64,000 bases of DNA, taken from positions 6,728 through 70,727 of IMG/VR virus record IMGVR_UViG_3300045286_000131; one strand, 5' to 3'. Numbering within the stretch: the stretch's first letter is position 1; every line of letters starts with the position of its first letter. Origin of the DNA: a virus. The position numbers and the translations under genes are program-made. Positions 4,164-29,200 of the stretch are shown here, in pieces. The notes beneath the pieces are model-generated. The model had not been told where the DNA came from. It worked only from the letters and a program-made list of their open reading frames with translations, and did not search any database.

Positions 4164-6593
4164 GTGATTATGATTGACCTGCAAATCTTGAGCCAAAGGG
4201 GCATCACCAGCGATGCCCTTAAAAAACTTTTCTCCGCAAATCCCGAAGACACGAAGGACTTGGACAAGGAGGCAGTCAAGCGCGTTGACGCCTTGAAGAA
4301 CCGAATCCGCTCCCGCATCCAAGAGGGAATGACGCGCAACCTGAAGGACTGGCGCTGGCTCTACGCTTTGGATGTCGCTTGGGAGACTCCCTTCCGTCAA
4401 ATCAACCCGACGCTGCTTCAGTCGTTGGTTGACAGTGGCCCGAATCCAAACAATGAAGACGTGATGAAGGTTGTCGCCGGGCTTGGACTTGAGCGATTTG
4501 TCACCGAGGAAAAAGACGCCGACGGAAAGGGGACTGGCAAAAAGATGCTGGATGTCCCGACGTTTTTCAACCTGCTCGTTCCGCTCGTAAAAGCCTACGT
4601 CACAATCCGCATGGCGAAGATTGTGAACGACCGGATTAACAACGGTTTTCTTGAAATCCAGCCGGCCCGCGCGAACACGATAAACAGGATGCGGACAGAG
4701 GCGCTTAACGCGCGCATCCGCATCATGGAGTCGCAGTTTTCCTACGTCGAAACCTTCCGCAAGCTTGTCCTTAATACGCTTCACTACGGCACCGCGATTC
4801 AGTTCATCATGGAGGAATGGTATTCTGAGACGCAGTTGAAGAAGGCGACCAAGGACGACGTTTTTCTTGGACTGAAGAAAAAAGACGCTGGCGGGGCCGA
4901 AGTGAACATAAAAGAAGACGACGAAATTACAGTCGTTTCCAAGGAGGGATTGCGCTACAAAATTCCGCATCCTTCCCGCCAGTTTCGCGATTTAGACCAT
5001 CCGCTTCACACGTTGAATAGCGATTCTGGCTGCGCTTACGTCGGCTACTGGTCGGTTGTCCGCTACCGCGACATTCTCAACAAGGGCTTTTGGAATATCA
5101 GCGCCGTTCCGCTTGGCAATACCAACATCATTGGCGAAAACTCCGCGTTTTTTCAGACCGTCTATTCCGCCTGCAAGTTAAAGATTCCGCTCGCCGAAGG
5201 CGCGGCGGCGGCGGAAGGCGGCGTTGGCACTGGAAAAAACGACGCCGAGCGCCAGATGTCGAACCAGTTTTACGGGACAGACCAAGAAGACCAAGGCGTT
5301 TTGCTGACAAACTATTTCGAGAAGCTTGTGCCCTCGGAATGCGGGCTTGGCGACTACGCGCATCCAGTGTGGTTTCGCTTTGTGGTTGCGTCGGATTCAG
5401 CCACCGTGCTTTACGCCGCGCCGCTGCCTTCCTGCCCGGCGATTTACGCCGGCTACGACCCCGACGAGTCCAAGGACAAGAATATGTCCATGTCGCTCGA
5501 AGTGATTCCGTTTCAGGATCAGTTTGGAATGGTGCTGAGTCAGATTGTTTTGTCGGCCAAGCAAAATCTGGCGAACATGACGCTGATTAACTCCGACATC
5601 CTCGACGACGACCAAGTTGCCAAGGTGAGAAATCTTGGCGAGGGATTTTTCCGCAAGCTGAACATCTTCTCAACATCCTTCAAAAAGATGATGAAGATGA
5701 AGACCGACCCGGAGCAGGCGCTTGTTTCCCACACGCTGCCGAAGGCTAACGTGGCGGAACTCACGAACGTCCTGAAGACCATCTTGGATGTCTTGGAGCG
5801 TGTGTTGATGATGTCGAACGTGGAAATCGCGCAGCAGGCATCGCATGAGCAGCCGGCGGCGGAAATCACTCAGCTTGCGGCCTCGACGACGAGCCGCGTT
5901 GCCTACACCGCAATCTCAATTGACGGCGCGCTCGACGCGCAGAAGCGCCAGCTTTACGAATACACAATGGCGTATGGCGACGAGTATTTTTACGCGCACG
6001 TTCCGTCCGACCCGCCGCTGGACAAAACGCATCTTTCGCTGCTTGGATTCGACTACGCAAGCGGCGACATCCTTTTCTCCGGCGACAAATACCGGCGCGT
6101 GAAAGTGAACCTAAAGCGGCTTCTGATTCCGTTGCACGAATTTGCCAAGTGCAACTTCAACGAGCCGCAGCGCGTTGACGCCAAGACGGCGGCATCCATC
6201 GCGCAACTTCTGCAACCGCTGATGAGCAATCCCGCCATCATGCAGATTCTTGGCCCGCAGCAGATAATTGGCATCACAAACCAGATGGGCAAGCTCGTAG
6301 GCTGGGACGATGATTTCCGTCTGCGCGCGGCAAACAAGTCGCCGGAACAAATCCAGCAGGAAGCCCAGATGCAGTTGAAGAAGACCATCGCGGCGCTCAT
6401 GCAGCAAGTGGATGCAAAGATTCTCGCCGACATAAAACCGCTCGCGGAAAAGGTTCAGGAAATTTCCAAAGCCGTCGGCGCAATCGAACACGCCGCCGGC
6501 CTCGCGGATCATTCCGCCTCGCCGGGCATGAGTCCGGCACCGCAGCCAATCCCTCAAAATGCTCAACCTCTCCCCGCAGCCGCCCAACAGTGA
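4164..6593 (+). CDS. probable portal protein
   Basis: 809 aa, mostly helical with a Gln/Pro-rich C-terminal tail; lies between terL and scaffold/capsid; the call is positional. Confidence 0.6.
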   Translation: MIMIDLQILSQRGITSDALKKLFSANPEDTKDLDKEAVKRVDALKNRIRSRIQEGMTRNLKDWRWLYALDVAWETPFRQINPTLLQSLVDSGPNPNNEDVMKVVAGLGLERFVTEEKDADGKGTGKKMLDVPTFFNLLVPLVKAYVTIRMAKIVNDRINNGFLEIQPARANTINRMRTEALNARIRIMESQFSYVETFRKLVLNTLHYGTAIQFIMEEWYSETQLKKATKDDVFLGLKKKDAGGAEVNIKEDDEITVVSKEGLRYKIPHPSRQFRDLDHPLHTLNSDSGCAYVGYWSVVRYRDILNKGFWNISAVPLGNTNIIGENSAFFQTVYSACKLKIPLAEGAAAAEGGVGTGKNDAERQMSNQFYGTDQEDQGVLLTNYFEKLVPSECGLGDYAHPVWFRFVVASDSATVLYAAPLPSCPAIYAGYDPDESKDKNMSMSLEVIPFQDQFGMVLSQIVLSAKQNLANMTLINSDILDDDQVAKVRNLGEGFFRKLNIFSTSFKKMMKMKTDPEQALVSHTLPKANVAELTNVLKTILDVLERVLMMSNVEIAQQASHEQPAAEITQLAASTTSRVAYTAISIDGALDAQKRQLYEYTMAYGDEYFYAHVPSDPPLDKTHLSLLGFDYASGDILFSGDKYRRVKVNLKRLLIPLHEFAKCNFNEPQRVDAKTAASIAQLLQPLMSNPAIMQILGPQQIIGITNQMGKLVGWDDDFRLRAANKSPEQIQQEAQMQLKKTIAALMQQVDAKILADIKPLAEKVQEISKAVGAIEHAAGLADHSASPGMSPAPQPIPQNAQPLPAAAQQ

Positions 6594-6888: not shown

Positions 6889-8364
6889 ATGGCTAAAAAC
6901 GAATTCAGCTTCACCAAAACCAAAAAGCCCGAAGTAAAGCCCGCGTCACCTGAGCCGAAGCCGGCTGAAAAGCCCCCGACGCCGGAAGAGATTGAGCAGT
7001 CCAAAGCCGAAATGCTGGACTCACTTGGATTTGGCGGTGGCGCTGAAAAAAAGAAGCCGGCCGCGCCGCCGGAAAAGAAGCCCGAAGGCGAGAAGCCGGC
7101 CGGTGAGGCGAAGCCCGAAGAAGCCAAGCCTGAAGCCGGCAAGCCAGCCGCGAAGACGCCGGACAAAATCGCTTCCACCGAAGACATCATTTCCAAGACC
7201 GCTGCGAAGACCGCCGCTGCCGTCGCTGAAAAACTTTCCCCGCCGAAGCCGGAGGCGGAAGAGGTCGAGGACGCCGGAATTGAGTTGAAGCCGGAAGACC
7301 AGAAGGAGTCCCGCATTCTGGCGAAGCTCGCCGAAATCAATCCGTCCAAATACGGCGATTCTGTCAAGCAGTTCGAGGACTGGTGTTCCAAGCTCTACAA
7401 ATACGAGGAAAAGTGGCTGGCGGAAAACCCCGGCAAGAAGTTCAACATTGACGACGAGGAACACGCCGAATTCATCGAACAGAACCAGCCGGAGATTGAC
7501 GAGGACGATTACGAGGAAGCCAAGATTCAACATCGCGTTGACGAGGCTTACGAGCGCCGCATTGCGCCGGAGCAGCGCATCAAGGAAACGCGGGAACGGA
7601 TTCAAGCCGCGATGCCAACCATTGTCAGAAATGTCCACAAGGGAGCCTACAATCTGATTGAAAAAATCAACCCCGAACTCGCCGCGTTGCTGAAAAACGA
7701 GAAAGGCGAAATTGTCATGGAGGACGCGAACTTCAAGAAGATTGAAGCCGCCGATCCGATTGCCTACAAAGGCTTGATTCCGATTGTCACCAGCGCCGCT
7801 CAGGTTTTGACATCGCTGGAACAGATTTCAATTCCCGGCATTTCGCTGAAGCTCGACCCGGAAAATGTTCCGGCCCACGCCGAAATTCTCGCCCTTGCGA
7901 AAACTTACGAGGACACGCTGATGAAAGCGCCGGAAGACGTTCGCATTGTAAACGGCCGCGCATTCATTACCGCTGCGGATCGCGCTGCGCGCATTGACAA
8001 AATCAACGCCGCGAAAACGTCCAAGGCGACGAAGCAGAAGAAGATTTCGGAACTCAATGACTCGACGTGGACGGTCGGGCCGGAAGAGCTTTCGGAGATT
8101 CTGGTGGAGAAGCTTGCGGCGAAGGCGAAGGCTTCAATTTCCGAAAACGACGAGCTTGCAAGGAAAAAATATGGCGGCGAGAAAAAACCCGCGAGTCCGA
8201 ATTATGCGCCGCCGATTGTCCGGCCGGAAGCCGGTGCCAGCCGCGAAAAACCACGCCCGCCGCAAGCAGGGGGCGGTGTTGAGCAAGTGACAGCATCTTC
8301 ACCAACTGGCGACGGGGATAAAAAATTCTCTGAAACCGCTACCGAAGTAGCGTTTGCAGGCTAG
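6889..8364 (+). CDS. probable capsid scaffolding protein
   Basis: E/K/P-rich disordered N-terminus with coiled-coil character, immediately upstream of the capsid candidate. Confidence 0.55.
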   Translation: MAKNEFSFTKTKKPEVKPASPEPKPAEKPPTPEEIEQSKAEMLDSLGFGGGAEKKKPAAPPEKKPEGEKPAGEAKPEEAKPEAGKPAAKTPDKIASTEDIISKTAAKTAAAVAEKLSPPKPEAEEVEDAGIELKPEDQKESRILAKLAEINPSKYGDSVKQFEDWCSKLYKYEEKWLAENPGKKFNIDDEEHAEFIEQNQPEIDEDDYEEAKIQHRVDEAYERRIAPEQRIKETRERIQAAMPTIVRNVHKGAYNLIEKINPELAALLKNEKGEIVMEDANFKKIEAADPIAYKGLIPIVTSAAQVLTSLEQISIPGISLKLDPENVPAHAEILALAKTYEDTLMKAPEDVRIVNGRAFITAADRAARIDKINAAKTSKATKQKKISELNDSTWTVGPEELSEILVEKLAAKAKASISENDELARKKYGGEKKPASPNYAPPIVRPEAGASREKPRPPQAGGGVEQVTASSPTGDGDKKFSETATEVAFAG

Positions 8365-8419: not shown

Positions 8420-10162
8420 ATGCCAGCCTCACCCTTCCAAAATACACCGTGCAAAGTTGTTGCAACGAACAACTTTGATACCGTCGGCACCATCACCCTC
8501 GCGTCTGTCAGTTGCCTGACGCCTGACCAACTCTCCCAGCTTTTCAAGCCGGGCGGCTTGTATGCCGACATGGACGCTTGGTTTCGCACCAGCTTTGAAA
8601 TGCAGGCGTGCGGTATCAAGTCCAACGGCCTTTACGACTGGCTGATGTCCAGCCGCAAGGACGTGAAGAGTCTCGTTTCGGTTCAGAAGATGGATCGCGG
8701 CCCGTCGCTGCTTTTCCCGTTCGTTCTGGCGCGTCAGGATTCCTTTGTGAACCTCGACTTCTTCGCCATCACGAACGGTTGGCAGAACAACGCCTATACC
8801 GCTGGCGTCACCGGCCCGCTCACTTCCGGCGACCTCGCGCTTGGCGCGACGACCGACCGTGTTATCCGCGTCGTGTCCCGCTACGGCGTTGACCTCGACA
8901 GCAAGTGGTTCCTGAGCCGCGACCGCGTTTACATCTCTAACTTGGCTTCCGGCCAGCGCACCGACGGCCAGTGGAAGGTTCTCGCGTCCGAAGTCTCCGC
9001 CGACAACAGCTATGTTGACGTTCTGGTGGCTTCCGAAAACGCCGGCTCCACCGCCGTTTACGATGCGGCCCCGACGGCCGGCGTCCTCGTTCGCGGCGGC
9101 AACAACGTGAACGACTTCGAGAGCTACTGCGGCAATCGCCCGACGATTGACACCCGCCATCGCGTTCCGTTCTGGTATCAGACCATGCGGCGCGGCCGGC
9201 AGGTGGACAGCGAATACAAGAAGGTTTTCGCGCGGCTCATGGAGTCCAACGAATACTACGCCGAATTCGGCGACCTTCCGTTGGCGGAGCGCAACCGTCA
9301 GGATGAAGCGAACTACCAGAAACAGTGGCTTAACAGCTTCTTCTGGGGCAAGCCGATTTCCGCCAACCAGACCCTCGCCGGCTGGCAGTCGCTCGAACAG
9401 ATTACGTCCGTGACCGGCGCGCACGTTGATCCCGGCTTGGGCGGCAAGCTCGTCGCCTACCGCGCCAACATGATTGGCGTCGTCGAGCAGTTGCGCCGCT
9501 GTGGCCGCGTCTGGGACTTGCAGAACACGTCATTGAATTTCTACGACTTCCTGCAATCCATCTACGAAATCGTCCGCGCCCGCAAGTCGCAGGGCAAGGC
9601 GGCGGATTCGATTGACGTGTTCACGGATTCCGTGACTGCCGCCAACATGGAGTCGGCGTTTATCGCCTACTACAAGAAGGAATACGGCGACATCATCCGC
9701 ATCAACATCGAAACCGGCGGCAACGAATGGGGCTTCCAGTGGCGCTCCTTTACCGTGAAGTTCCCGGCCGGCGTGAAAATCAACCTGATTTCCCACGATT
9801 ATTTCGATGACCTCTACAACGCGCACGTCACCGAAAACTCGGCTGCTGCCGGCCGGTTCCTGATGATTCTGGAAATGGGCAAGCCCGGCCCGCGCGGCGG
9901 CACCATCTATCCCGGCACCATCGCCAGCAACCGCAAGGTTCGCACGCTGGGCGACTTGGAGAAGCTGGCGGCGCTCGACCCGACGTTCGCCTGTGTCATG
10001 GAGCATCCGACCGACGAAATCACGCTCGTCTCGGAAACCGTCACGGCCATTGTGGAATGCCCGCTGAACAACCTCGTCATCCAGTCCATCGGCTCTGGCG
10101 TGCCGGACACTTCGACCGGCTACAACGGCCCGTCGTCTGGCCCGTATCAGCCGCTTTATTAA
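8420..10162 (+). CDS. probable major capsid protein
   Basis: 580 aa, visibly strong codon bias, follows the scaffold and is followed by a strong terminator. Confidence 0.65.
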   Translation: MPASPFQNTPCKVVATNNFDTVGTITLASVSCLTPDQLSQLFKPGGLYADMDAWFRTSFEMQACGIKSNGLYDWLMSSRKDVKSLVSVQKMDRGPSLLFPFVLARQDSFVNLDFFAITNGWQNNAYTAGVTGPLTSGDLALGATTDRVIRVVSRYGVDLDSKWFLSRDRVYISNLASGQRTDGQWKVLASEVSADNSYVDVLVASENAGSTAVYDAAPTAGVLVRGGNNVNDFESYCGNRPTIDTRHRVPFWYQTMRRGRQVDSEYKKVFARLMESNEYYAEFGDLPLAERNRQDEANYQKQWLNSFFWGKPISANQTLAGWQSLEQITSVTGAHVDPGLGGKLVAYRANMIGVVEQLRRCGRVWDLQNTSLNFYDFLQSIYEIVRARKSQGKAADSIDVFTDSVTAANMESAFIAYYKKEYGDIIRINIETGGNEWGFQWRSFTVKFPAGVKINLISHDYFDDLYNAHVTENSAAAGRFLMILEMGKPGPRGGTIYPGTIASNRKVRTLGDLEKLAALDPTFACVMEHPTDEITLVSETVTAIVECPLNNLVIQSIGSGVPDTSTGYNGPSSGPYQPLY

Positions 10163-10177
10163 GCACGCTTCGGATTC

Positions 10178-10208
10178 AAAAACCCCCGGCTTCGGCTGGG
10201 GGTTTTTT
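10178..10208 (+). terminator. intrinsic (possibly bidirectional) terminator
   Basis: AAAAACCCCCGGC-TTCG-GCTGGGGGTTTTTT hairpin with T tract. Confidence 0.9.
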
Positions 10209-10212
10209 ATTG

Positions 10213-10239
10213 TTGACAGCTACGCGACTTGCGTATAAT
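10213..10239 (+). promoter_or_regulatory. sigma70-type promoter for the HTH-GroES-cassette-intI operon
   Basis: TTGACA (10213-18) and TATAAT (10234-39) with a short 15-bp spacer; overlaps near-palindrome TACGCGACTTGCGTA. Confidence 0.6.
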
Positions 10240-10249
10240 CTTTTCGCGC

Positions 10250-10345
10250 ATGAGCCGCCAGACATATTTCATCGTTGGATTCATGGCCGGCGCGGTGACG
10301 GCCGGAGCGATTATCGGCACCGTCCTTTTTATTTACCGCCCTTGA
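10250..10345 (+). CDS. 31-aa single-TM peptide
   Basis: MSRQTYFIVGFMAGAVTAGAIIGTVLFIYRP, directly after the promoter and ending 3 nt before the next ATG. Confidence 0.45.
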   Translation: MSRQTYFIVGFMAGAVTAGAIIGTVLFIYRP

Positions 10346-10348
10346 TTT

Positions 10349-10534
10349 ATGACAAAGCCGACAAGCAAGAAACGGAACTTCCCGAAGGCGCTGAAAGAGT
10401 GGCGCAAGGGACGCGGATTTACGCAGCAGCAGGCGGCGAAGGTAATCGGCGTCAAGCTTGCCACCTACCGGAATTGGGAGCAGGGCAGAAACCGGCCGAT
10501 TGAGGCGCTGGTTAATTTTCTTTTTCACAAATAA
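10349..10534 (+). CDS. Cro/XRE-family HTH regulator
   Basis: LKEWRKGRGFTQQQAAKVIGVKLATYRNWEQGRNRP. Confidence 0.85.
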   Translation: MTKPTSKKRNFPKALKEWRKGRGFTQQQAAKVIGVKLATYRNWEQGRNRPIEALVNFLFHK

Positions 10535-10538
10535 TTTT

Positions 10539-10853
10539 ATGGCAAAAGTTCCACCAATGCCGAGGCGGCTTTTCGGAAACCGCGTTATTATCGCCGTCAA
10601 ACCTTCGGTTGGCGGATTCATTGTGAAGGATGGCGTTCTTGTTCCGAACCGCGAGGGCGAGTTTGGAAACCCGAACTTCCGCGAAGCAGTCATTGTGATG
10701 ACCGGCGAAGGCATCACCGAAGACCTGAAGCCCGGCGACAAGGTTTGCTGGAACAGTCGTGGCGGAGTTCCGTATCACGGACTGCTTGTGGTGAGCGTGC
10801 TGGACATTGAGTTTGTGATTCCGCCTAACGACAAGCTGAGCGACAGCCGATAA
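10539..10853 (+). CDS. groES: GroES/Cpn10-like co-chaperonin
   Basis: LFGNRVII..GG..VLVP..AVIVMTGEG..LKPGDKV..VLDIEFVI matches the Cpn10 pattern; the last 7 codons and the stop lie in attC-1. Confidence 0.7.
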   Translation: MAKVPPMPRRLFGNRVIIAVKPSVGGFIVKDGVLVPNREGEFGNPNFREAVIVMTGEGITEDLKPGDKVCWNSRGGVPYHGLLVVSVLDIEFVIPPNDKLSDSR

Positions 10854-10949
10854 AACCACATGAACTTTACAGACTTCAAAAAGCCATACGAGGCAACAAA
10901 AGCGTGGCTGCCGCAAGCCAAGGCTGTTCGCTCCGGCGATTTGTTAGAT
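10823..10949 (-). other. attC: attC site 1 (127 bp)
   Basis: + strand GCCTAAC-GACAA-GCTGAGCGACAGCC ... GGCTGT[T]CGCTC[C]GGC-GATTT-GTTAGAT; inverted arms with two extrahelical bases. Confidence 0.85.
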
Positions 10950-11708
10950 GTCCGTCGTATGGCTCAAACATCCATGCTAGATGGCAGGCTAATCGTGTGG
11001 TTTTCAATGGGTGCGGCGTCTGCCTGTATGCTCAAACTTTTGGCGCATCTAAAACCGATGGCTGTCTATTGCAACACGTCAAAAGACGAGCATCCCGACA
11101 ACCTGCGCTTCCGTGGCGAAATCGAACACTGGACAGGAATCAAAGTGACTGTCATCGGCTCGGACAAATACCAAACAACCGATGAAGTCTTTGAGGACAC
11201 GCAATACATGAGCGGTATCGGCGGCGCACGCTGCACAACTGAACTCAAAAAAATTCCGCGTCTGCGCTTCGCGTATGCCGAGGACATCCACTGCTTCGGA
11301 ATGACGGTGGACGAACAAAAACGCATCAAACAATTCGAGGCAAACAATCACGACATGAATCTAGCGTGGCCGCTAGTGACGGCAGGCATGACCAAACACG
11401 ACTGCCTGAAAGAACTAATGATGAATGGCATCGAACTGCCCGCCATGTATCAACTCGGCTTTGAAAACAATAACTGCATCGGATGCGTGAAGGCTCAAAG
11501 CCCCGACTACTGGAACAGAACGCGCAAACACTTTCCAGAACGCTTCCGCCAGCGGGCGGAACAAAGCCGACGACTCGGAGTGAAGCTAGTAAAGCTCCAC
11601 GGCGAACGAATCTTTCTCGATGAACTGCCCGAAAACGAAACTGAAAAACTGTCCGAGGACTTGTCATGCGGCCCGCAATGCGCTGACGCGAGGACATCTA
11701 ACGAATAG
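10860..11708 (+). CDS. PAPS-reductase/PP-loop family protein (cassette)
   Basis: IVWFSMGAASA PP-loop variant, CTTELKKIP, NNNCIGCVKA. Confidence 0.8.
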   Translation: MNFTDFKKPYEATKAWLPQAKAVRSGDLLDVRRMAQTSMLDGRLIVWFSMGAASACMLKLLAHLKPMAVYCNTSKDEHPDNLRFRGEIEHWTGIKVTVIGSDKYQTTDEVFEDTQYMSGIGGARCTTELKKIPRLRFAYAEDIHCFGMTVDEQKRIKQFEANNHDMNLAWPLVTAGMTKHDCLKELMMNGIELPAMYQLGFENNNCIGCVKAQSPDYWNRTRKHFPERFRQRAEQSRRLGVKLVKLHGERIFLDELPENETEKLSEDLSCGPQCADARTSNE

Positions 11709-11804
11709 CTATGCAGCCACCGACCGACCAACTAACGAGCGCAATGGACGTTACCGATTCACGGGGCGCGTCCGCCGGTGGTCTGCATCAGCGTCTTGTT
11801 CCCC
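11696..11804 (-). other. attC: attC site 2 (109 bp)
   Basis: ATCTAAC-GAATA-GCTATGCAGCCACCG ... CGGTGG[T]CTGCAT[C]AGC-GTCTT-GTTCCCC. Confidence 0.9.
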
Positions 11805-12484
11805 AGCCCTTTTACGAGGACTCACATATAACGCTCTACAACGCTGACTGCCGCCAAGTGCTGCCCCACCTGAAAGTCGCCAACGCCTTTTGCTTCACTG
11901 ACCCGCCCTACAATGTCGGCAAAGACTACGGCGTGTGGAATGACGAAATGCCAACGGCTGACTATCTGCAATTCTGCGCCGAATGGATCGCGGAAGTGAA
12001 ACGGCTCTGCCCCGAAGTCTGCATCTACCCGCCGACAAAATACCTGCTCGAATACTGGCAAATGCTTGGACGCGACTACAAGCAAATCGCGCTCACATGG
12101 AGTCCCGAAGGTGCAATCCGTGGCGGCTGGGTGAATCAATTCGTGACGCTGCTGACCAACGCGAAACCGAAACAGCGCACGAAAGACTGGTGGCATAACT
12201 GCCAGATGCAAGGACTCGGCTACTTCTTCCGTGAAGAATCCTACGGGCATCCAGGCTACACCAGTGAGGATGTGACAAACCGCGTGCTGGCGGCCGTGTG
12301 TCCGACGGATGCAACTGTAATCGAACCTTTCGCCGGCACGGGGACAACTCTGTGGTGCGCGAAACTCCGTGGCATGAAAGCCATCGGATGCGAGATAAAC
12401 CCGAAATACTGCGAACTCATAGCCTCACGATGCGCCCAAAGCGTGCTGGGGCTGGGGAACGGCGGAGCTATGCCACGCCAGTAG
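11711..12484 (+). CDS. N4C/N6A DNA methyltransferase, beta class (cassette)
   Basis: TDPPYN (motif IV) precedes EPFAGTGTT (motif I) and GCEIN. Confidence 0.9.
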   Translation: MQPPTDQLTSAMDVTDSRGASAGGLHQRLVPQPFYEDSHITLYNADCRQVLPHLKVANAFCFTDPPYNVGKDYGVWNDEMPTADYLQFCAEWIAEVKRLCPEVCIYPPTKYLLEYWQMLGRDYKQIALTWSPEGAIRGGWVNQFVTLLTNAKPKQRTKDWWHNCQMQGLGYFFREESYGHPGYTSEDVTNRVLAAVCPTDATVIEPFAGTGTTLWCAKLRGMKAIGCEINPKYCELIASRCAQSVLGLGNGGAMPRQ

Positions 12485-12560
12485 TAAAGGAAAACATGAC
12501 AACTCAAAAAAACAAGAAACGGCCAACGCCAAAGGCGTTGGCATCAGCGACTGGTTCGGC
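12454..12560 (-). other. attC: attC site 3 (107 bp)
   Basis: GGGGAAC-GGCGGA-GCTATGCCACGCC ... GGCG[T]TGGCAT[C]AGC-GACTG-GTTCGGC. Confidence 0.9.
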
Positions 12561-12762
12561 ATGGGTGCGCGTAAAAGACAAACTCCCAATGGAATCGGAA
12601 CGGGTCATCGCCATCTATCGCGGCGTGTATCACCACCGCATCGTGACATTCTGGCGTGACGCCGGAGGAACGCCGCACTTCGGACATCCGAGCGAACCGG
12701 ATGGCAAAGGAAGCCAACCCGCAACCCACTGGCATCCGCTGCCGGAAATGCCGAACAGTTAA
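12496..12762 (+). CDS. DUF551-like phage protein (cassette)
   Basis: WVRVKDKLP...ATHWHPLPEMP signature; ATG 12496 preceded by AAAGGAAAAC. Confidence 0.8.
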   Translation: MTTQKNKKRPTPKALASATGSAWVRVKDKLPMESERVIAIYRGVYHHRIVTFWRDAGGTPHFGHPSEPDGKGSQPATHWHPLPEMPNS

Positions 12763-12788
12763 TTGAACAACTCCAACTTTGTTTATTT
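12748..12788 (-). other. attI: putative attI site
   Basis: ATGCCGAAC is complementary to the other end of the first cassette (GTTCGGCAT); no hairpin partner follows; directly 5' of intI; further GTT motifs on the - strand. Confidence 0.7.
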
Positions 12789-13772
12789 ATGACTGCCATT
12801 GAAATGTTGAAAGCTGCCATTGTAGAACAGGCTTGCGATGATGATACGTTTCAGCAATACGCATTTTGGGTTCGGAAGATTTATCATCATTTGAAAATTC
12901 CAGCCTCACAATGGACAACGGTGGACATGAACAAGGGCTTGATGTGGTTGCGGTCGGAAAATTATGCGGATCAGTCCCAGCGGTGCGCCTTGTGTTCGGT
13001 GGTTTTCTTTTTCCGGTATGTTTTGAAGCGCGAACTTGGTCGGCTGGATTTGCCAGCCATGCCCAAGCAGCGCAAGCAACTCAAGGAAGTCCCGACGCGG
13101 GAGGAAGTCGCCAAACTTATCATGCTGTTGCGCGATGAGTTTCGGCTGATGGGCGGTTTGATGTATGGCGGCGGCACTCGCGTAAAAGAAACCTGCAAGC
13201 TGCGCGTGAAGGATTTTGATTTCGACAACTGCGAAATCCGCATCCACAACGACACCGCCAAGGGTAAAAAATCCCGCTTGCCGCCTTTGCCACAAGCGAT
13301 GATTCCAGCGTTAAAGGATTACTTTGACAACAAACGCCGCGAACTCTACGAGCGCGATCTGGCGCAAGGCTGGGGCTTTGTGGAATTACCCGGAAGACTG
13401 GCGAACAAATACAAGTCGGCCAATCGTGAATATGGCTGGCAGTTTGCTTTTCCTTCACGCGCCGTTTCTCCAACTGGATACCGATGGCACATCACGCCGG
13501 AAGCGTTTCAGAACGAACTCCGCAAGGCTCGGCAGATTGCCGGCATCATCAAGCCGGTGACACCCCACACGCTGCGTCATGCCTTCTGCACCCATGCGCT
13601 AGAGAACGGAACCGAGTTTGAAACCGTCCGCAAATGGATGGGGCATGAGGACGCCAATACCACTTTGATTTACGCGCATACCACCAAGCGCGGCGAGTCG
13701 CCGATGGATTTTGGCCGTAACCTACGCCGATTCCAGATGCCGCCGCAAATCACTTTCGACGCCAAAAACTAA
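12789..13772 (+). CDS. intI: integron integrase (tyrosine recombinase)
   Basis: Catalytic R (YGGGTRVKE), K (AKGKK), HTLRH, MGH, TTLIY, plus the IntI-specific insertion DLAQGWGFVELPGRLANKYKSANREYGWQFAFPS. Confidence 0.93.
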   Translation: MTAIEMLKAAIVEQACDDDTFQQYAFWVRKIYHHLKIPASQWTTVDMNKGLMWLRSENYADQSQRCALCSVVFFFRYVLKRELGRLDLPAMPKQRKQLKEVPTREEVAKLIMLLRDEFRLMGGLMYGGGTRVKETCKLRVKDFDFDNCEIRIHNDTAKGKKSRLPPLPQAMIPALKDYFDNKRRELYERDLAQGWGFVELPGRLANKYKSANREYGWQFAFPSRAVSPTGYRWHITPEAFQNELRKARQIAGIIKPVTPHTLRHAFCTHALENGTEFETVRKWMGHEDANTTLIYAHTTKRGESPMDFGRNLRRFQMPPQITFDAKN

Positions 13773-14534
13773 ATGAAAACATCCATCCTGATAGTCACCT
13801 TTCGCAGAGACATTGAGTTCTGCACGTTCGCCCTGAAATCCATCGCCAAGTTTGCGGCCGGATTTTTGGAGACGGTCGTTGTTGTTCCTGAAAGCGACAA
13901 GGAGTTGTTTGGCGCGCTCCACGCGACATATAATTTCAAGCTGCGGCCGGTTCCAGAGCCGGCTGGAAAAGGGATGCTGAACCAAATGCTGGTGAAAAGC
14001 ACGGCGGATAGTTTCTGCCCGCAAGCGGATTTCATTTTGCATTTCGACAGCGACTACATTTTCACCGCGCCAGTTACGCCGGAAACTTATTTTCGGGACG
14101 GCAAGCCGGTTCTGGTTTGCAACCCGTATGAAAACGTGACCGAGGCCGGACACCGGCAATGGCAGCGGGTGGCTCAAAACGCCGTCGGGTTTGCGGTTCC
14201 GTTCGATACCATGTGCCGCCTGCCGATTATCCACTTGGCGGAGGTTTACCCGAAGCTGCGGGCGCACGTCGAGAATCACACCGGGCTTCCGCTTGAGGAA
14301 TTCATCATGGGCGGGCGTGCCGAGTATCCGCAATCATATGCGGAATTTCCGACCATTGGCGCGATTGCGCTTCATTTCTTCCGCGACGAATACACAGTCG
14401 TTGACCTGTCCAAAGAGCCGGAGCCGAAAAATCCAATCATGCGCGGATGGAGTCACGGCGGCATGGATCACGAAATGCTTTTTCAGGACGGTGAAACGAC
14501 GACTGCGCGGAAGAAGTGGGCGCAGTATCTTTGA
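13773..14534 (+). CDS. GT-A fold glycosyltransferase-like protein
   Basis: SILIVTF..D N-terminus and ILHFDSD DxD motif. Confidence 0.65.
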   Translation: MKTSILIVTFRRDIEFCTFALKSIAKFAAGFLETVVVVPESDKELFGALHATYNFKLRPVPEPAGKGMLNQMLVKSTADSFCPQADFILHFDSDYIFTAPVTPETYFRDGKPVLVCNPYENVTEAGHRQWQRVAQNAVGFAVPFDTMCRLPIIHLAEVYPKLRAHVENHTGLPLEEFIMGGRAEYPQSYAEFPTIGAIALHFFRDEYTVVDLSKEPEPKNPIMRGWSHGGMDHEMLFQDGETTTARKKWAQYL

Positions 14535-14569
14535 CTTTTTAAGCCCGACGTTTACAGGGCAATAAAAAT

Positions 14570-14770
14570 GGCCGGCGGCTGACCGCGACATGGAGTGATG
14601 CGCCGTTACAGCCGCCGGCCCTAGATTTACGGTGCGACTACACCTTGCAGGATAGCCGGAAATCCTGTTGAAATATGGATTCCCGCGATGAGTCGCCACG
14701 GAAGGGTATGGCTTCCGCTTCATACCGTGGATGGGAATGCTGTTTTTCTAATGGCAGCACGCAATGCGTC
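14570..14770 (+). ncRNA. candidate structured non-coding RNA
   Basis: About 300-nt gap lacking a convincing ORF, with serial stems including a perfect 12-bp GGCCGGCGGCTG/CAGCCGCCGGCC; strand uncertain. Confidence 0.4.
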
Positions 14771-14833
14771 CTCCGGCCAATTTCGTTAAAAAACGCTTTT
14801 CAAACCGGAAAGCGGTGATAAAGTCGAATTGTT

Positions 14834-15328
14834 ATGGCAATCAAGTTTTACAAAAAGACATCCCCCCGCACGACCGTCAAATTTGGAAACTTCGCCCTGA
14901 CCTTCCCGACGTTCGACAACATTGTTGGCTATTATTCCACCGACAACGCTGCGGTTCAGGCCGCGCTGGCCGACTACATCGCCAACCAGCAATACGGCCT
15001 CACGGAGATTTCGCAGGAGGAATACAACGCCGACTACCTCGAAAAAAAAAACAATGGGGCGACATTGCCGCCGCGACAATATCGGGAGGAAATAACCAGC
15101 AGAGGATTTTCGTCCGGCCAGCACCAAGGGGCTTATTCGGGGGACACAAGAGTTGCTGCGGTGGTTAGAACCGGCAACGGATCAATTGCCCCGAAATCCG
15201 AAACCCAAATGACCATCGCCGAAAGCTCCGAAGCCGATTCTATTGCACAGCCGAAGCCGGCGGTTTCGCCGACGGCGCAACCTCTTCCCGCCGGCCAGTT
15301 CCAACCATCCACCGGAAAGCGCAAGTAA
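14834..15328 (+). CDS. hypothetical protein
   Basis: 164 aa, abuts the next gene. Confidence 0.65.
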   Translation: MAIKFYKKTSPRTTVKFGNFALTFPTFDNIVGYYSTDNAAVQAALADYIANQQYGLTEISQEEYNADYLEKKNNGATLPPRQYREEITSRGFSSGQHQGAYSGDTRVAAVVRTGNGSIAPKSETQMTIAESSEADSIAQPKPAVSPTAQPLPAGQFQPSTGKRK

Positions 15329-26179: not shown

Positions 26180-26222
26180 GTTTTGATTGATTTCGCGGGA
26201 AAACGAAGGCATAACATTCCTT

Positions 26223-29200
26223 ATGCCGCTACCGGACTTCGATTCACTTCAGCCAGCAACGGAATCTCCATCGAAACCGGCGGAAAAATTGTCGCCGGAT
26301 TTTGAATCGCTGAAGCCGGCACCGGACTTCGATTCGCTCGCGCCGGCAGATGCGGAAGGCGAGAAACCATCGCCCCTCAAAATTGCAGCCAAGCCCGTTC
26401 CGCGCTCAAGCGAAGAGTTGGGCGCTCAAAACTTTGCCGGTGAATCATCCGTCATCAAAGACATCAAGCCCGCATTCATTCAGGCGATGCAGCAGCACGT
26501 TAAGACGCCCGAAGACAAGGCGCGTCTTGACGCATTGGTGAAGGCCAAGTTCGACACCGAGAAGCTTCCCAGATCCGGCGTTGTTGGTGATGCCGTTACG
26601 GCTGCGATGCAAGGCCCGTTTGAGGCGCTTGGAGACATGAAAAAGTTCGCCGACGTTGAATCGCTTTGGAACGAACGCGAACAGCAGCGCAAGCTTTACA
26701 ACCAGACCGTTGAAAAATACCACGACCAATTAACCAAGGATGGAAAAGCGCCGAGCGAACTGGAGCCGCCGTCGGCAACCGACAAAATCGGCAGGCTCGC
26801 GTTTGGTGTGGCGCACGGCGCGGCCGGACTTGGCGACTTCATCGCGTCTCCATTCGGCGTGATAACCGGCGAGCTTTCGGCGATACCGGAAACGGCGCTG
26901 GCAAAATCTCCGCTGGCAAGAAACGCCGTGAATGTCGTCCAGAACGCTTTCAGCCTTGGATTCGGAGCGCAGATGGCAAGCGCGCTGCCAGCGGAGGTTT
27001 CCGAGCTTTACGACGAGGCAATGAAGCCGGAAAAAGACCGCGATTGGGCGAAAGTTGGCGCGCTGGCAATCTCGACGGCGACGACTCCGTTTTTCGCAAA
27101 GATGGCGATTCAGCACGGATTGCGGACGAAGCTCGACCGTGTTTACGCGCAGTTGAATGAGCAGGTTTCCAACACACAGCTTGACCCGCGCTTTGCCTAC
27201 GGGGCCGGCTTCGGAATTCCAGCGCCGCAAAAAGCAGCGGTCGAAAAAAGCCAGCCTCAAACCGAATGGTATTTCGATCCGAAGACGGAAAAACTTTTTC
27301 GAGTCCTAAACCTATCAACCAAGAAAGGAGCGCAAAATGCCCCTGATACAATCGTCGAGCCGCCAAGCGTTCAGCAGGAACGTGGCGGAATTAATGAAGA
27401 GCGGGAAACGTCCACAGAAACAGGCGGTGGCAATCGCCTACCGGGTGAAGGAGGGGGTGAAGAACCACCGCAAGTCGTCACTCCGCCGCAAGAAGAAAAG
27501 CCGGCGCTAAACGAGCGCGACAAAAAGATTTTGGTGCCGCTAACACGCGAGCGCAACCGGCTCGTCATGGAAGGCGCTTCACAGGTTGACCCGCGCGTAG
27601 TCGCATTGGACGCGCAGATAAAACATCACCTTGAAGAGAATCGCCAGACAGCCGCAAACGAAATTGAGATGGCTTCCGTAAAGCCGGAAGACATTCAAAG
27701 CCTTCGGCTCACTCCCGCGTTGATGGTGGATGGAAAGCCGGTGACTGGCGGGGCAAACCACAACGCAATCTACGAAAAGCTTGTGGCCGAAGCCAAGGCG
27801 CGCGGAAGCAAGTCGGCGGAAGCGGACGCGCACGAAGCGAAGCTGGATGACAGCGCGCACGTTTTCATTGACCGCGCCGGCAGGATTCAAACCCGCGAAA
27901 CCGCCAAGCCGATTCTGTCCAAGATGCTTGGCAAGGAAATCACTGACCCGGTTCACAGTGAGATGATACCGGACAGGTTTAAGGATTTGCCGAAGCCGGC
28001 GGAGCCATCTGGAAACATCCTTCCAAAATTTGACGAGCCAAAAAAAGGCATCTCGACATGGTATTCCGGCGGCTCCGAAGAGGCGGAGGGTGGGATTGGT
28101 GATTTCTGGCTGGCGAGCGACAAGGAAACTGCCGACGCGAGCGCGCGTCGAAAAGGAGGCACCACAAAGCAATATGCGGTGGATACTTCCGGCTTTCAGG
28201 TTAAGAAAATCCCAAAGAAATATGACCCTACGGATTGGCTTGATGGAACCGACCATGAAGCAGTTGAAAAAGCTAGGGAATCTGGCAAAAAAGGAATTGT
28301 TGTTACAAACGGCAAAGATTCGGTTGTTGTTGTGTTTGAGGGAAACGCGGAGCTTGTAAAACCAACCCAAGAATCTTCCCCCGCTTCAACGCCCGTTCTC
28401 CCGGCTCCCCCGGTCGCACCGGCAGTCGAGCCAACTAAAGGGATTGAGGCGGGGACTCCGCCTTCGGAAAAGAAAACACAGGAAGACGTCGTTCGCGAAG
28501 CGTTGCAGTCCGGCCCGAAGTCGCTCAAGCAGCTTGCGGACGAACTGGACATCATCAACCACAACATCCGCCGCATCCTTGGCGTCGGCGCAAAGGCCGG
28601 AAAGTTTGAACGCATTGCGAGAGGTGTTTACGCGCTCAAAAACAAAAACGGCTCGTATATCTACGCGCAGTCCACCGACGCGATACTGGCAATGCCGGAA
28701 CTGGCCGCGCGAGGCGTGAAGGCGGATTTTCTTTTTCTCGACCCGCCCTACAAGACGGCGGCTATCATGGGCGGCAATCGCGGCATCAAGGCATACGCGA
28801 TGATAACGCCGGAAGACTTCAACAAGATTGTCGCGGCGGCGAAGGTGATGATGCGGACTCCCGACTCGCCGGTTTATTATATGTATTCGCAGGCTCCATC
28901 CGGCCTGAAGGATATGCAGAAATACACCGACGCATTTGTTCAAAATGGTTTTACGCTGGTGGCAAAGGGCGGATGGACGAAGACTTTCAAGGACGGCAGG
29001 CCGGTGACGAATGTTCGCGGCAAGGTTTCAGAGCCGGAGGGAATCGCGCTGTTCACGCTGTCTGGAAAAACCGACGCGAAGCCGCTGCCGTCGCTGAACT
29101 TCAAATCCGTTCGCCCGCCGGTTGCCGGCGAAGGCGGCAGGCAGTCGCAAAAGCCGACGGAACTTTATTCCAAGTTGATTGGATTTCACGCCGACGAACT

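Follow-up and report, generated by a model that had tools for sequence, protein, structure and literature searches.

Results

Organization of the locus

The window, that is, the whole 64-kb stretch that was analysed, belongs to a 70.7-kb phage record, and its positions 10823-12788 hold a three-cassette integron array adjoining an IntI-family recombinase gene. All features listed below lie on the + strand. An upstream block of structural genes is closed by a hairpin resembling an intrinsic terminator (10178-10207; a 13-pair stem and then a T run), which is followed by a promoter-like element (10213-10239) with TTGACA at 10213-10218, TATAAT at 10234-10239, and a spacer of 15 nt. A preliminary description of this DNA had placed these hexamers beyond the oldest cassette, and they were found there; both are perfect, and the consensus may not be that of the host. 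Three small ORFs (10250-10853), resident genes that precede the array, separate the element from the oldest cassette: a 31-aa ORF (10250-10345), an HTH_3 protein (10349-10534), and ORF104 (10539-10853), whose last 8 codons lie inside the first attC site. No family was found for the 31-aa ORF or ORF104.

The oldest cassette, cassette 3 (10829-11701, 873 nt), carries a PAPS-reductase-like ORF (10860-11708; PAPS_reduct, 25.5 bits; phrog_424, 149.5 bits). Cassette 2 (11702-12459, 758 nt) carries an N6_N4 DNA methyltransferase ORF (11711-12484; N6_N4_Mtase, 74 bits), and cassette 1, the newest and attI-adjacent one (12460-12755, 296 nt), carries a DUF551 ORF (12496-12762; DUF551, 31.3 bits). All three cassette ORFs are on the + strand, as had been described, and each has family support. 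The array is followed by an attI-like junction (12750-12788), in which a variable left core, GCCGAAC, precedes a conserved stretch that reaches the intI ATG, and by intI itself (12789-13772, 327 aa). The next gene (13773-14534) abuts the intI stop codon (TAA, then ATG), has a weak DUF6492 match below the Pfam cut-off, and is not conserved in relatives; it probably closes the transcription unit to which intI belongs.

The attC sites

Three imperfect palindromes span the ORF junctions, each on the + strand in bottom-strand sense. Site s1 (10823-10949) consists of GCCTAAC, 5 nt, the arms, 5 nt, and GTTAGAT, with a putative crossover at 10828/10829 and extrahelical bases C 10934 and T 10928. Site s2 (11696-11804) consists of ATCTAAC, 5 nt, the arms, 5 nt, and GTTCCCC (putative crossover 11701/11702; extrahelical C 11789 and T 11782), and site s3 (12454-12560) of GGGGAAC, 6 nt, the arms, 5 nt, and GTTCGGC (putative crossover 12459/12460; extrahelical C 12545 and T 12539). 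In all three, the left arm carries the AAC core and the right arm both unpaired bases; the right arm runs from the 5-nt spacer through 3 bp to an extrahelical C (position 16) and through a further 5-6 bp to an extrahelical T (position 22/23). The spacer lengths of the preliminary description (5, 5, and 6 nt on the left and 5 nt on the right), its extrahelical bases on the right arm, and its core-proximal C in place of G were recovered at 3/3 sites. The part of Nivina 2016 considered here states that the bottom strand carries the AAC triplet on the arm facing the extrahelical bases, that G is the usual base at position 16, and that a T is conserved at position 23/24. The + strand of s1-s3 fits this bottom-strand rule, its two extrahelical bases being C (16) and T (22/23). 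The features by which attC sites are recognized, namely R and L boxes, an unpaired central spacer, extrahelical bases on one arm, and a variable loop, are all present. The sources consulted on which residues contact the extrahelical bases name none.

The arms pair at 13/13 positions. The covariation count over the sites is partly circular, because its sites were picked for pairing. Minimum-energy DNA folding recovered the proposed arms for s2 only (a 15-bp stem with two bulges); unconstrained folds of s1 and s3 used other local hairpins and did not recover the L-box pairing, and pairing was judged by explicit checks, not by free folding. When both strands were folded, the + strand, proposed in the preliminary description as the recombinogenic one, was more stable by 1.0 kcal/mol in s1 and 1.4 kcal/mol in s3 and had no advantage in s2. 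An Rfam search gave no match on the attC sites; its three sub-threshold matches all lay on the terminator (10120-10222).

A geometry scanner, written after the sites had been seen and designed on s1-s3, found only these three on both strands of the window and nothing in the remaining 6.8 kb of the virus record. Shuffled windows gave 1 match in 30 shuffles and 3 matches in 40 shuffles. Over 1.36 Mb of loci with intI set on the + strand, 49 matches fell on + and 1 on -, and the reversed sequences of the same loci gave 0. In an annotated class 1 control in the same orientation, the scanner matched the intI-sense strand at the 3' end of aadA16, and the cassette genes, aadA16 included, lie on the opposite strand. 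Since the control match is on the intI-sense strand with the cassette genes opposite, the intI/attI/attC geometry of the phage locus is regular and only the ORFs are flipped. The control also bears out two earlier claims, that the canonical attC top strand is the - strand (AAC being opposite the extrahelical bases on +) and that the array points away from intI as usual.

The ends of the cassettes are perfect 7-nt complements in 3/3 cases (GTTAGAT/ATCTAAC in cassette 3, GTTCCCC/GGGGAAC in cassette 2, and GTTCGGC/GCCGAAC in cassette 1). On walking from attI, each left core is the reverse complement of the right core of the next hairpin in 3/3 steps of the window; the same walk in the clade gave 12 perfect and 2 one-mismatch links in 8/9 genomes, and none in L017. 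An alternative assignment, with the top strand on + and crossover at the right core, was rejected on three counts: the intI-adjacent site is a bare left core without a full hairpin, the intI-proximal cassettes differ in all relatives, and the right-core GTT falls in three different frames.

The integrase and its clade

The IntI protein scored 102 bits against PF00589. Against TIGR02249 it scored 238 bits over 2-306 of 315 positions, below the curated cut-off of 265 bits and about twice its scores against XerC/XerD (about 110-115 bits). Its best solved relative is VchIntIA (2a3v; 155 bits), which aligns continuously over residues 19-304; the XerC-like chain 4a8e aligns only to residues 18-183 and 237-299. 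Because VchIntIA aligns through residues 184-236 and 4a8e does not, this segment is the IntI-type insert, that is, the additional domain specific to IntI. The catalytic residues of a tyrosine recombinase (R131, H260, R263, H286, and Y295) are intact and invariant in 19 clade sequences. In a quick tree, the window IntI fell in a clade of 22 rows (SH-aLRT 99, stem 0.83), and its best match among 50,697 GenBank phage records was 35.7% identical. The backward layout was found repeatedly across this distinct clade, nearly all members of which are on viral contigs.

The attI junction and cassette turnover

The attI AAC sits 35 nt before the intI ATG. A boundary between conserved and variable sequence was seen at AAC/AGT in 11/11 clade genomes, 28-56 nt before the intI ATG, so that, as expected of an integron, the attI adjoining intI would be the point of insertion. 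Three relatives (L001, L002, and L005) have IntI proteins 85-94% identical to that of the window, and their match to the window is confined to 12750-13773 (attI and intI), with homology beginning at 12750-12754. With the window included, each of the four genomes has a cassette of its own immediately to the left of the conserved junction, AAC followed by AGTTAATT; such variation in cassette content among close relatives is a mark of integrons, and the earlier proposal that the newest cassette adjoins intI is borne out by it. The other window proteins had no relative in any locus, bar one weak methylase match. In L002, two copies of a 33-nt stretch part right after AAC. A putative crossover in the + strand AAC is supported by this divergence of the L002 repeats and by the point at which the homology of the relatives starts. 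By homology, the + strand would be the one that recombines.

Homology to these relatives ends at the intI stop codon, which had prompted the idea of a second crossover bounding intI at its right end; four 3' ends had no common core, and the idea was rejected.

Orientation of the cargo and reading frames

By the usual description of a cassette, the ORFs lie on the attC top strand and are read from Pc divergently from intI, and the cassettes here do not follow it. Cassettes with a Pfam family are on the + strand, the attC bottom strand, in 5/5 cases over three genomes and in 3/3 within the window. By a crude comparison of ORF lengths, the longer frame was on + at only 9/15 clade sites. Of the six exceptions, two are truncated by contig starts, one has an ORF that stops 5 nt short of the site, and one runs antisense to a methylase with Pfam support; the other two (L012 and L015 site 1) are unexplained. 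Methylase cargo was also found in relatives L002 and L013. In one batch of the family search, 6/10 proteins remained without a family: four are ORFs from L002, L005, and L011, and the other two come from L027, outside the IntI clade. Another batch of cassette proteins left 9/10 without a family, with one match below the cut-off.

A frame rule is new here: AAC is read as a codon, the stop lies in a short tail, and the next start lies in the attC loop. An ORF that extends over the crossover takes AAC as an Asn codon and stops within 17 codons, and the next ORF begins in the loop of the attC; the short tail after AAC comes from the neighbouring attC or from attI. At 10/16 attC sites of the clade, AAC is a codon of the longest + frame, which ends 2-17 codons further on; at 3/16 the stop codon of that frame is inside the core, and at 3/16 no long frame arrives. 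In 10/11 genomes, the longest frame at attI is likewise the one that has AAC in frame.

Transcription

A promoter scan of 9800-15000 demanded a spacer of 16-18 nt, by which the 15-nt pair at 10213-10239 goes unlisted, and it listed no + strand promoter in that interval, none before intI, and no - strand promoter-like site near attI or intI. A divergent Pc/Pint pair is the canonical layout given in the sources on regular integrons considered here; unlike in these, the scan found no such pair. The gaps between genes are 0-26 nt, and the attI tail stops beside the intI ATG. Among sequencing runs recorded as RNA, none was found to contain the stretch. From these purely anatomical features, gene gaps, attI tail, and lack of a listed promoter before intI, we infer that intI would be co-transcribed with the cassettes.

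Discussion

Comparison with known integrons

The locus shares with class 1 integrons and Vibrio chromosomal integrons the extra domain of IntI and an attI at the 5' end of intI. Further features in common with regular integrons are AAC/GTT cores, an unpaired spacer of 5-7 nt, a variable loop, extrahelical bases at 16 and about 23 on the arm facing AAC, and an array that leads away from intI with its bottom strand on the intI-sense strand. It differs in that the cargo ORFs are on the bottom strand, whereas theirs are on the top strand, and in that the attC arms and loop contain the ends and starts of ORFs. It is also set apart by a C at position 16, by an attI crossover only 35 nt from the intI ATG, and by its location in a phage.

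In the part of Nivina 2016 considered here, promoter-facing cassettes are stated never to have been observed in mobile or chromosomal integrons, and no description of a layout with cassette genes flipped relative to attC was found in the literature searched. In the Treponema denticola type of inverted-integrase integron, as far as the source consulted describes it, intI is transcribed towards attI, precedes the cassettes, and shares the attC strand. The common point is that cassette genes and intI have the same direction; in contrast, intI here leads away from attI and comes after the cassettes, the attC top strand is opposite intI, and attI is at the 5' end of intI, so that the phage locus does not belong to that type as there defined.

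The sections of Qi et al. 2023 (PMC9892861) considered here describe complete phage integrons as pieces of host Vibrio, class 1, or Shewanella integrons in temperate phages, and attC clusters of virulent phages as lacking intI; cargo antisense to attC is not described in those sections. Those elements have in common with the present one a phage location and DNA methyltransferase as recurrent cargo, and differ from it in that this IntI is in a separate clade.

Toxin-antitoxin cassettes of chromosomal integrons are often reversed. They offer a parallel for genes of an array that are not read from Pc, and one of them, in the source consulted, has its own promoter. Such single cassettes are exceptions in regular arrays, whereas every family-assigned cassette here is reversed, 3/3 in the window and 5/5 over three genomes.

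Alternative explanations

With good confidence, we regard the locus as a phage integron, working or recently so, with regular intI/attI/attC geometry and flipped cargo genes. A frozen relic, in which the sites and recombinase derive from an integron, the cassettes are immobile, and the block is an ordinary phage operon, is improbable. Consistent with it, no excision or rearrangement joints were found among the matching contigs of two DNA runs (the half of the source run that was analysed left most of the stretch uncovered), and four 151-nt pieces from the run of a second study, all within 10221-11117, match the window without a difference. Nevertheless, relatives whose intI is 85-94% identical hold wholly different cassettes at the same junction, the cassette ends are still perfect complements, the arms pair throughout, and the catalytic residues are intact. 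In addition, two contigs from the likely source sample are of interest: one of 31 nt stops at the attI AAC, and one of 375 nt has an s2-like attC between other flanks.

Somewhat less probable again is a lysogeny integrase, for which the attI-like stretch or an attC would be attP, perhaps with host integrons as targets, and the hairpins would be regulatory stem-loops of the operon. The recombinase is the sole tyrosine recombinase in the 70.7-kb record (87% complete), in which no serine recombinase was found, and a small HTH_3 protein is in the same operon; but regulatory hairpins are not expected to have AAC/GTT cores, a fixed 5-nt spacer, and bulges at 16 and 22/23, nor end-to-end complementarity of cores or replacement of whole genes between them. 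The recombinase may have a dual use in lysogeny. That the attC resemblance is due to chance, beside an ordinary Xer-like phage integrase, is scarcely credible: 2/3 sites are absent from unconstrained minimum-energy folds and cores of the RYYYAAC and GTTRRRY types are frequent (50 and 54 in the window), but the scanner's three matches lie within 1.7 kb beside intI, with 0 elsewhere in the window and 4 in 70 shuffles, its matches in the 1.36 Mb are split 49 vs 1 by strand with 0 on reversed sequence, the chain complementarity of cores holds, and the IntI-specific insert is present.

Proposed mechanism

For the phage integron, we propose that the cut made by IntI falls between A and C of the left core, on the folded + strand, and that new cassettes would be inserted at attI. 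Positions 10250-14534 may be transcribed as a unit on the + strand, starting from the promoter-like element (10213-10239); a single transcript from there would leave the newest cassette furthest from the promoter, and intI would be made only via read-through of its own cargo. The shared frame would keep any cassette order translatable. The cargo, which here includes two DNA-modification-type enzymes, most likely serves the phage against host restriction.

More tentatively, and short of an even chance in our estimation, the clade may be an integron lineage native to phages, probably those of Verrucomicrobiota, with its cargo on the recombining strand and translationally stitched into the sites, coupled to transcription, and with a mobile intI-attI unit. 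AAC would then serve as an Asn codon, with the stop in the left arm or attI and the start in the hairpin loop, and any shuffle would give a translatable operon ending in intI. The bottom strand is in this case the non-template strand, and would therefore be freed to fold as the operon is transcribed during infection. Cassette exchange and integrase synthesis would be tied to phage gene expression, not to the host SOS response, and the intI-attI unit would travel between unrelated phages.

Implications

In standard integron logic, promoterless cassettes enter attI in a fixed orientation, Pc reads the newest most strongly, and intI is read the opposite way under SOS control. The phage integron would mean that control of orientation by the attC bottom strand does not dictate this expression logic, and it would offer a natural test bed for how single-strand folding interacts with transcription and with translation through hairpins. 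There is a consequence for annotation too: a pipeline that looks for cassette genes on the attC strand would call the cargo of this clade wrongly. The locus also suggests that phages may keep an exchangeable gene store of their own, here of DNA-modification enzymes likely used in counter-defence, which would parallel the defence cassettes recently described in bacterial integrons.

Results

Gene block and transcription

The viral record is 70,727 bases long (completeness estimate 87%), the window being its bases 6728-70727, and a large terminase subunit is encoded in the window (phrog_2, 67.7 bits). The structural part of the phage carries two very large + ORFs, 26187-31655 (1822 aa) and 33290-42994 (3234 aa). 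The interval 10213-13772, singled out in the preliminary description, is a tightly packed gene block, entirely on the + strand, with intergenic gaps of 0-26 nt. It contains a 31-aa ORF without family support (10250-10345), an HTH_3 protein (10349-10534; Pfam), ORF104, which has no family (10539-10853), a PAPS-reductase-like protein (10860-11708; PF01507, 25.5 bits; phrog_424, 149.5 bits), an N6_N4 DNA methyltransferase (11711-12484; 74 bits), a DUF551 protein (12496-12762; 31.3 bits), and the 327-aa tyrosine recombinase intI (12789-13772; TIGR02249 and 2a3v alignment). Another + strand gene abuts the recombinase stop codon (13773-14534; weak DUF6492 match, below cut-off).

The TTGACA/TATAAT promoter previously proposed at 10213-10239 has both hexamers perfect in sequence and lies downstream of a strong terminator (10178-10207); it is missing from the promoter-scan list because its spacer is 15 nt. 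The scan of 9800-15000 listed no + strand promoter; its sole listing was a weak - strand site at 10563-10534, and none was near attI or intI. By sequence inspection, no T run follows any attC site of the window. We infer a single + strand transcription unit from approximately 10246 to 14534. The 299-nt gap past this operon contains a perfect, G+C-rich inverted repeat of 12 bp (GGCCGGCGGCTG / CAGCCGCCGGCC; 14571-14620, loop of about 28 nt); it has no T run and was not called as a terminator.

Identity of the recombinase

By its sequence, the recombinase at 12789-13772 is an integron integrase. The top NCBIfam model was TIGR02249 (integron integrase; E 1.6e-70, residues 4-304 aligned to 2-306 of 315) with 238 bits, which is below the curated cut-off of 265 bits, whereas XerD and XerC scored 114.7 and 110 bits, respectively. 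The closest solved structure was 2a3v, the integron integrase of Vibrio cholerae (155 bits). Its alignment was unbroken over residues 19-304, while that of a XerC-like chain was limited to 18-183 and 237-299; thus, residues 184-236 represent an IntI-specific insert. The record contains no other tyrosine recombinase, and no serine recombinase was detected in it. In the 2006 structure of VchIntIA, the extrahelical T is reportedly held by W157 and W219, and the G by P232, H240, and H241. Based on the 2a3v alignment, we take the window equivalents to be H153, W217, P228, W233, and H234, respectively, so that two of the five differ.

attC geometry and the putative recombining strand

Three imperfect palindromes, s1 (10823-10949), s2 (11696-11804), and s3 (12454-12560), span the final three ORF junctions and share a common plan on the + strand. 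Read from left to right, the plan opens with a 7-nt core whose last three bases are AAC and a 5-, 5-, or 6-nt spacer, and continues through the left arm and a loop into a right arm in which paired stretches of at least 5, 5-6, and 3 bp are separated first by an unpaired T and then by an unpaired C; a fixed 5-nt spacer and a core starting with GTT follow. The attC features given in the preliminary description, namely left spacers of 5/5/6 nt, a fixed right spacer of 5 nt, and extrahelical bases on the right arm, match s1-s3 exactly. Its claim that the core-proximal extrahelical base is C rather than G also holds: counting from the right core, C occupies position 16 and T position 22 or 23 in s1-s3. 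According to the sections of one study that treat attC structure, the recombining bottom strand carries its AAC triplet opposite the arm with the extrahelical bases, usually has G at position 16, and has a conserved T at position 23 or 24, the two bases being separated by a stem of approximately 6 bp; this strand is cleaved between A and C (Nivina 2016). Given AAC opposite the bulges, C16, and T22/23, the + strand corresponds in structure to the bottom strand, except that C replaces G. Among the comparison loci fetched for their IntI-like genes, position 16 is C, as in the window, in L001, L002, L005, L011, L013, and L014, and G in L012 and L015.

The attC-geometry scanner was designed after s1-s3 had been seen and was therefore also tried on other loci. 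On both strands of the window it returned s1-s3 only; shuffled windows gave 1 match in 30 and 3 matches in 40, and the other 6.8 kb of the record gave no match. Over 1.36 Mb of fetched loci, with the integrase set on +, there were 49 matches on +, 1 on -, and 0 on reversed sequences. In an annotated class 1 integron placed in the same orientation, the match was the aadA16 attC on the intI-sense strand, and the four annotated cassette genes were on the opposite strand. Hence, the regular rule is that the scanner strand is opposite to the cargo strand; in the window, the two strands coincide. At 22 of 24 sites in bacterial loci, the longer open frame reaching the site was the regular antisense one.

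Cassette ends and the crossover point

At each site, the right core is perfectly complementary to the left core that comes next: GTTAGAT/ATCTAAC, a pair also listed as an 18-nt inverted repeat, GTTCCCC/GGGGAAC, and GTTCGGC/GCCGAAC, the last at attI (12750-12788). Such complementary ends are what cassettes circularising through one attC should show. In the window, walking from attI by core complementarity recovered three cassettes (296, 758, and 873 nt) and ended at s1; for the left core of this site there was no partner. In nine genomes, the walk yielded 12 perfect and 2 one-mismatch links in eight and none in L017; one L015 attC missed by the strict scanner was recovered in it. The window array is a real cassette array.

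In L002, a close relative, the first 33 nt of the contig recur at 1779-1811 and are AAC-terminated; one copy is followed by an attC, the other by attI. Since the copies diverge after AAC, the crossover is placed at the left core. The repeat could represent a duplicated cassette end or an assembly-graph branch from cassette-order variants in the population.

Turnover of the locus

The integrases of three close relatives, L001, L002, and L005, are 94%, 85%, and 90% identical to the window IntI, respectively. Their DNA aligned to the window only over 12750-13773, comprising attI and intI, at 80-85% nucleotide identity, and the remaining window proteins had no relative in any locus except for one weak methylase match. 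At the conserved junction AAC-AGTTAATT, the gene directly to the left differs in each genome: DUF551 in the window, a 73-aa ORF in L002, a Cys-rich 79-aa ORF in L005, and another, different ORF end in L001. Because the flanks of 12750-13773 are unrelated in the three relatives, the attI-intI unit itself seems mobile between different phages. No recognisable site was found at the 3' boundary of this shared unit in the four genomes.

The source habitat is freshwater sediment. The likely source sample, which is not independent of the window and is weak evidence, contained a 375-nt contig with an s2-like attC (11698-11800, 11 differences) in unrelated flanks and a 31-nt contig ending at the attI AAC. 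Run X2, a groundwater metagenome from another study, contained four 151-nt contigs identical to the window within 10221-11117, which span the promoter, HTH, ORF104, s1, and PAPS-reductase region; the methylase and DUF551 cassettes had no coverage in this run. In L001, the closest relative, a lone attC of the window type (7035-7143) lies 6 kb downstream of intI, with arms nearly identical to those of the L002 site 1264-1368; its AAC is read in frame by a 208-aa + ORF, and its loop contains the start of a 131-aa ORF. Either insertion of a cassette outside the array or a second array may account for this site.

Phylogenetic spread of the layout

A protein search with the window IntI gave graded relatives down to 59% identity, all metagenomic, followed by "integron integrases" at approximately 45-54%, one named Prosthecobacter sp. 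Among 185,579 species, each represented by one genome, the best relative, at 47% identity, came from a Chthoniobacter MAG (2.4-kb contig), and those ranked next reached at most 39%. The best match in 50,697 GenBank phage records was IntI1 (35.7%). In a quick tree, the careful search being unfinished, the window fell within a 22-row clade (SH-aLRT 99, stem 0.83), with the other 34 IntI rows outside. Besides the MAG contig and protein-only rows, the clade contains ten rows whose DNA context comes from viral or metagenome contigs.

AAC-AGT occurs 28-56 nt upstream of the intI ATG in all 11 clade genomes with DNA. Pfam-family cassettes were on + in five of five cases, three in the window and methylases in L002 and L013 (113 bits each). 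A crude frame-length measure favoured + at 9 of 15 clade sites, with six exceptions. Viral contigs outside the clade (L021-L029) have short sites of the G16 type, and their genes are in mixed or regular orientation, L023 being regular. An annotated GenBank phage, Virus Rctr41k (L035; KX853513.1), carries an IntI-like 'xerD' (4680-5678), 35% identical to the window IntI, amid a gene block all in one direction with two methyltransferase-like genes; the scanner found no attC there.

Inverted-integrase integrons are described as ones in which intI and attC share a strand, with transcription of intI running towards attI. Compared with the orientation types so described, the window element has a regular intI-to-attC relation and differs in its cargo strand. 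Where cassette orientation is treated, cassettes facing the promoter are stated never to have been observed (Nivina 2016). Sections on phage integrons in a later study report that temperate phages carry complete, host-derived integrons and that virulent phages carry attC clusters lacking intI, several of them with methylases, and these sections give no account of the window layout (Qi et al. 2023; PMC9892861). That study tabulates 17 attC clusters. Full-text literature searches found no description of bottom-strand-coded arrays or of a phage-specific IntI clade.

Reading frame at the crossover

A frame rule at the crossover AAC is an addition of this analysis to the preliminary description. 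The crossover AAC is an Asn codon in ORF104, the PAPS-reductase-like gene, the methylase, and DUF551, with 8, 2, 8, and 2 codons from AAC to the stop, respectively, the DUF551 stop being within attI. After each stop, the next ORF begins 2-11 nt on, in the attC loop, and the family-matching parts start past the attC (residue 32 for the PHROG match, about 40 for the methylase, and 22 for DUF551). The right-core GTT is read in three different frames across the three window ORFs.

The longest + frame that arrives at the core was recorded for 16 clade attC sites. It was in the AAC frame, with a stop within 2-17 codons, at ten sites; at three, the core itself contained its stop codon (twice the TAA in CTAAC and once the TGA in TGAAC); and at three, one of them at a contig start, no long frame arrived. 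At attI, the in-frame reading was the longest in 10 of 11 genomes, L014 being ambiguous (28 vs 30 codons), and in several genomes the tail encoded by attI either terminates no more than a few bases from the intI ATG or runs into it. As judged from these readings, the frame rule fits a left-core crossover together with real translation on the + strand. Since the crossover AAC is in a shared frame, any cassette order would stay in frame.
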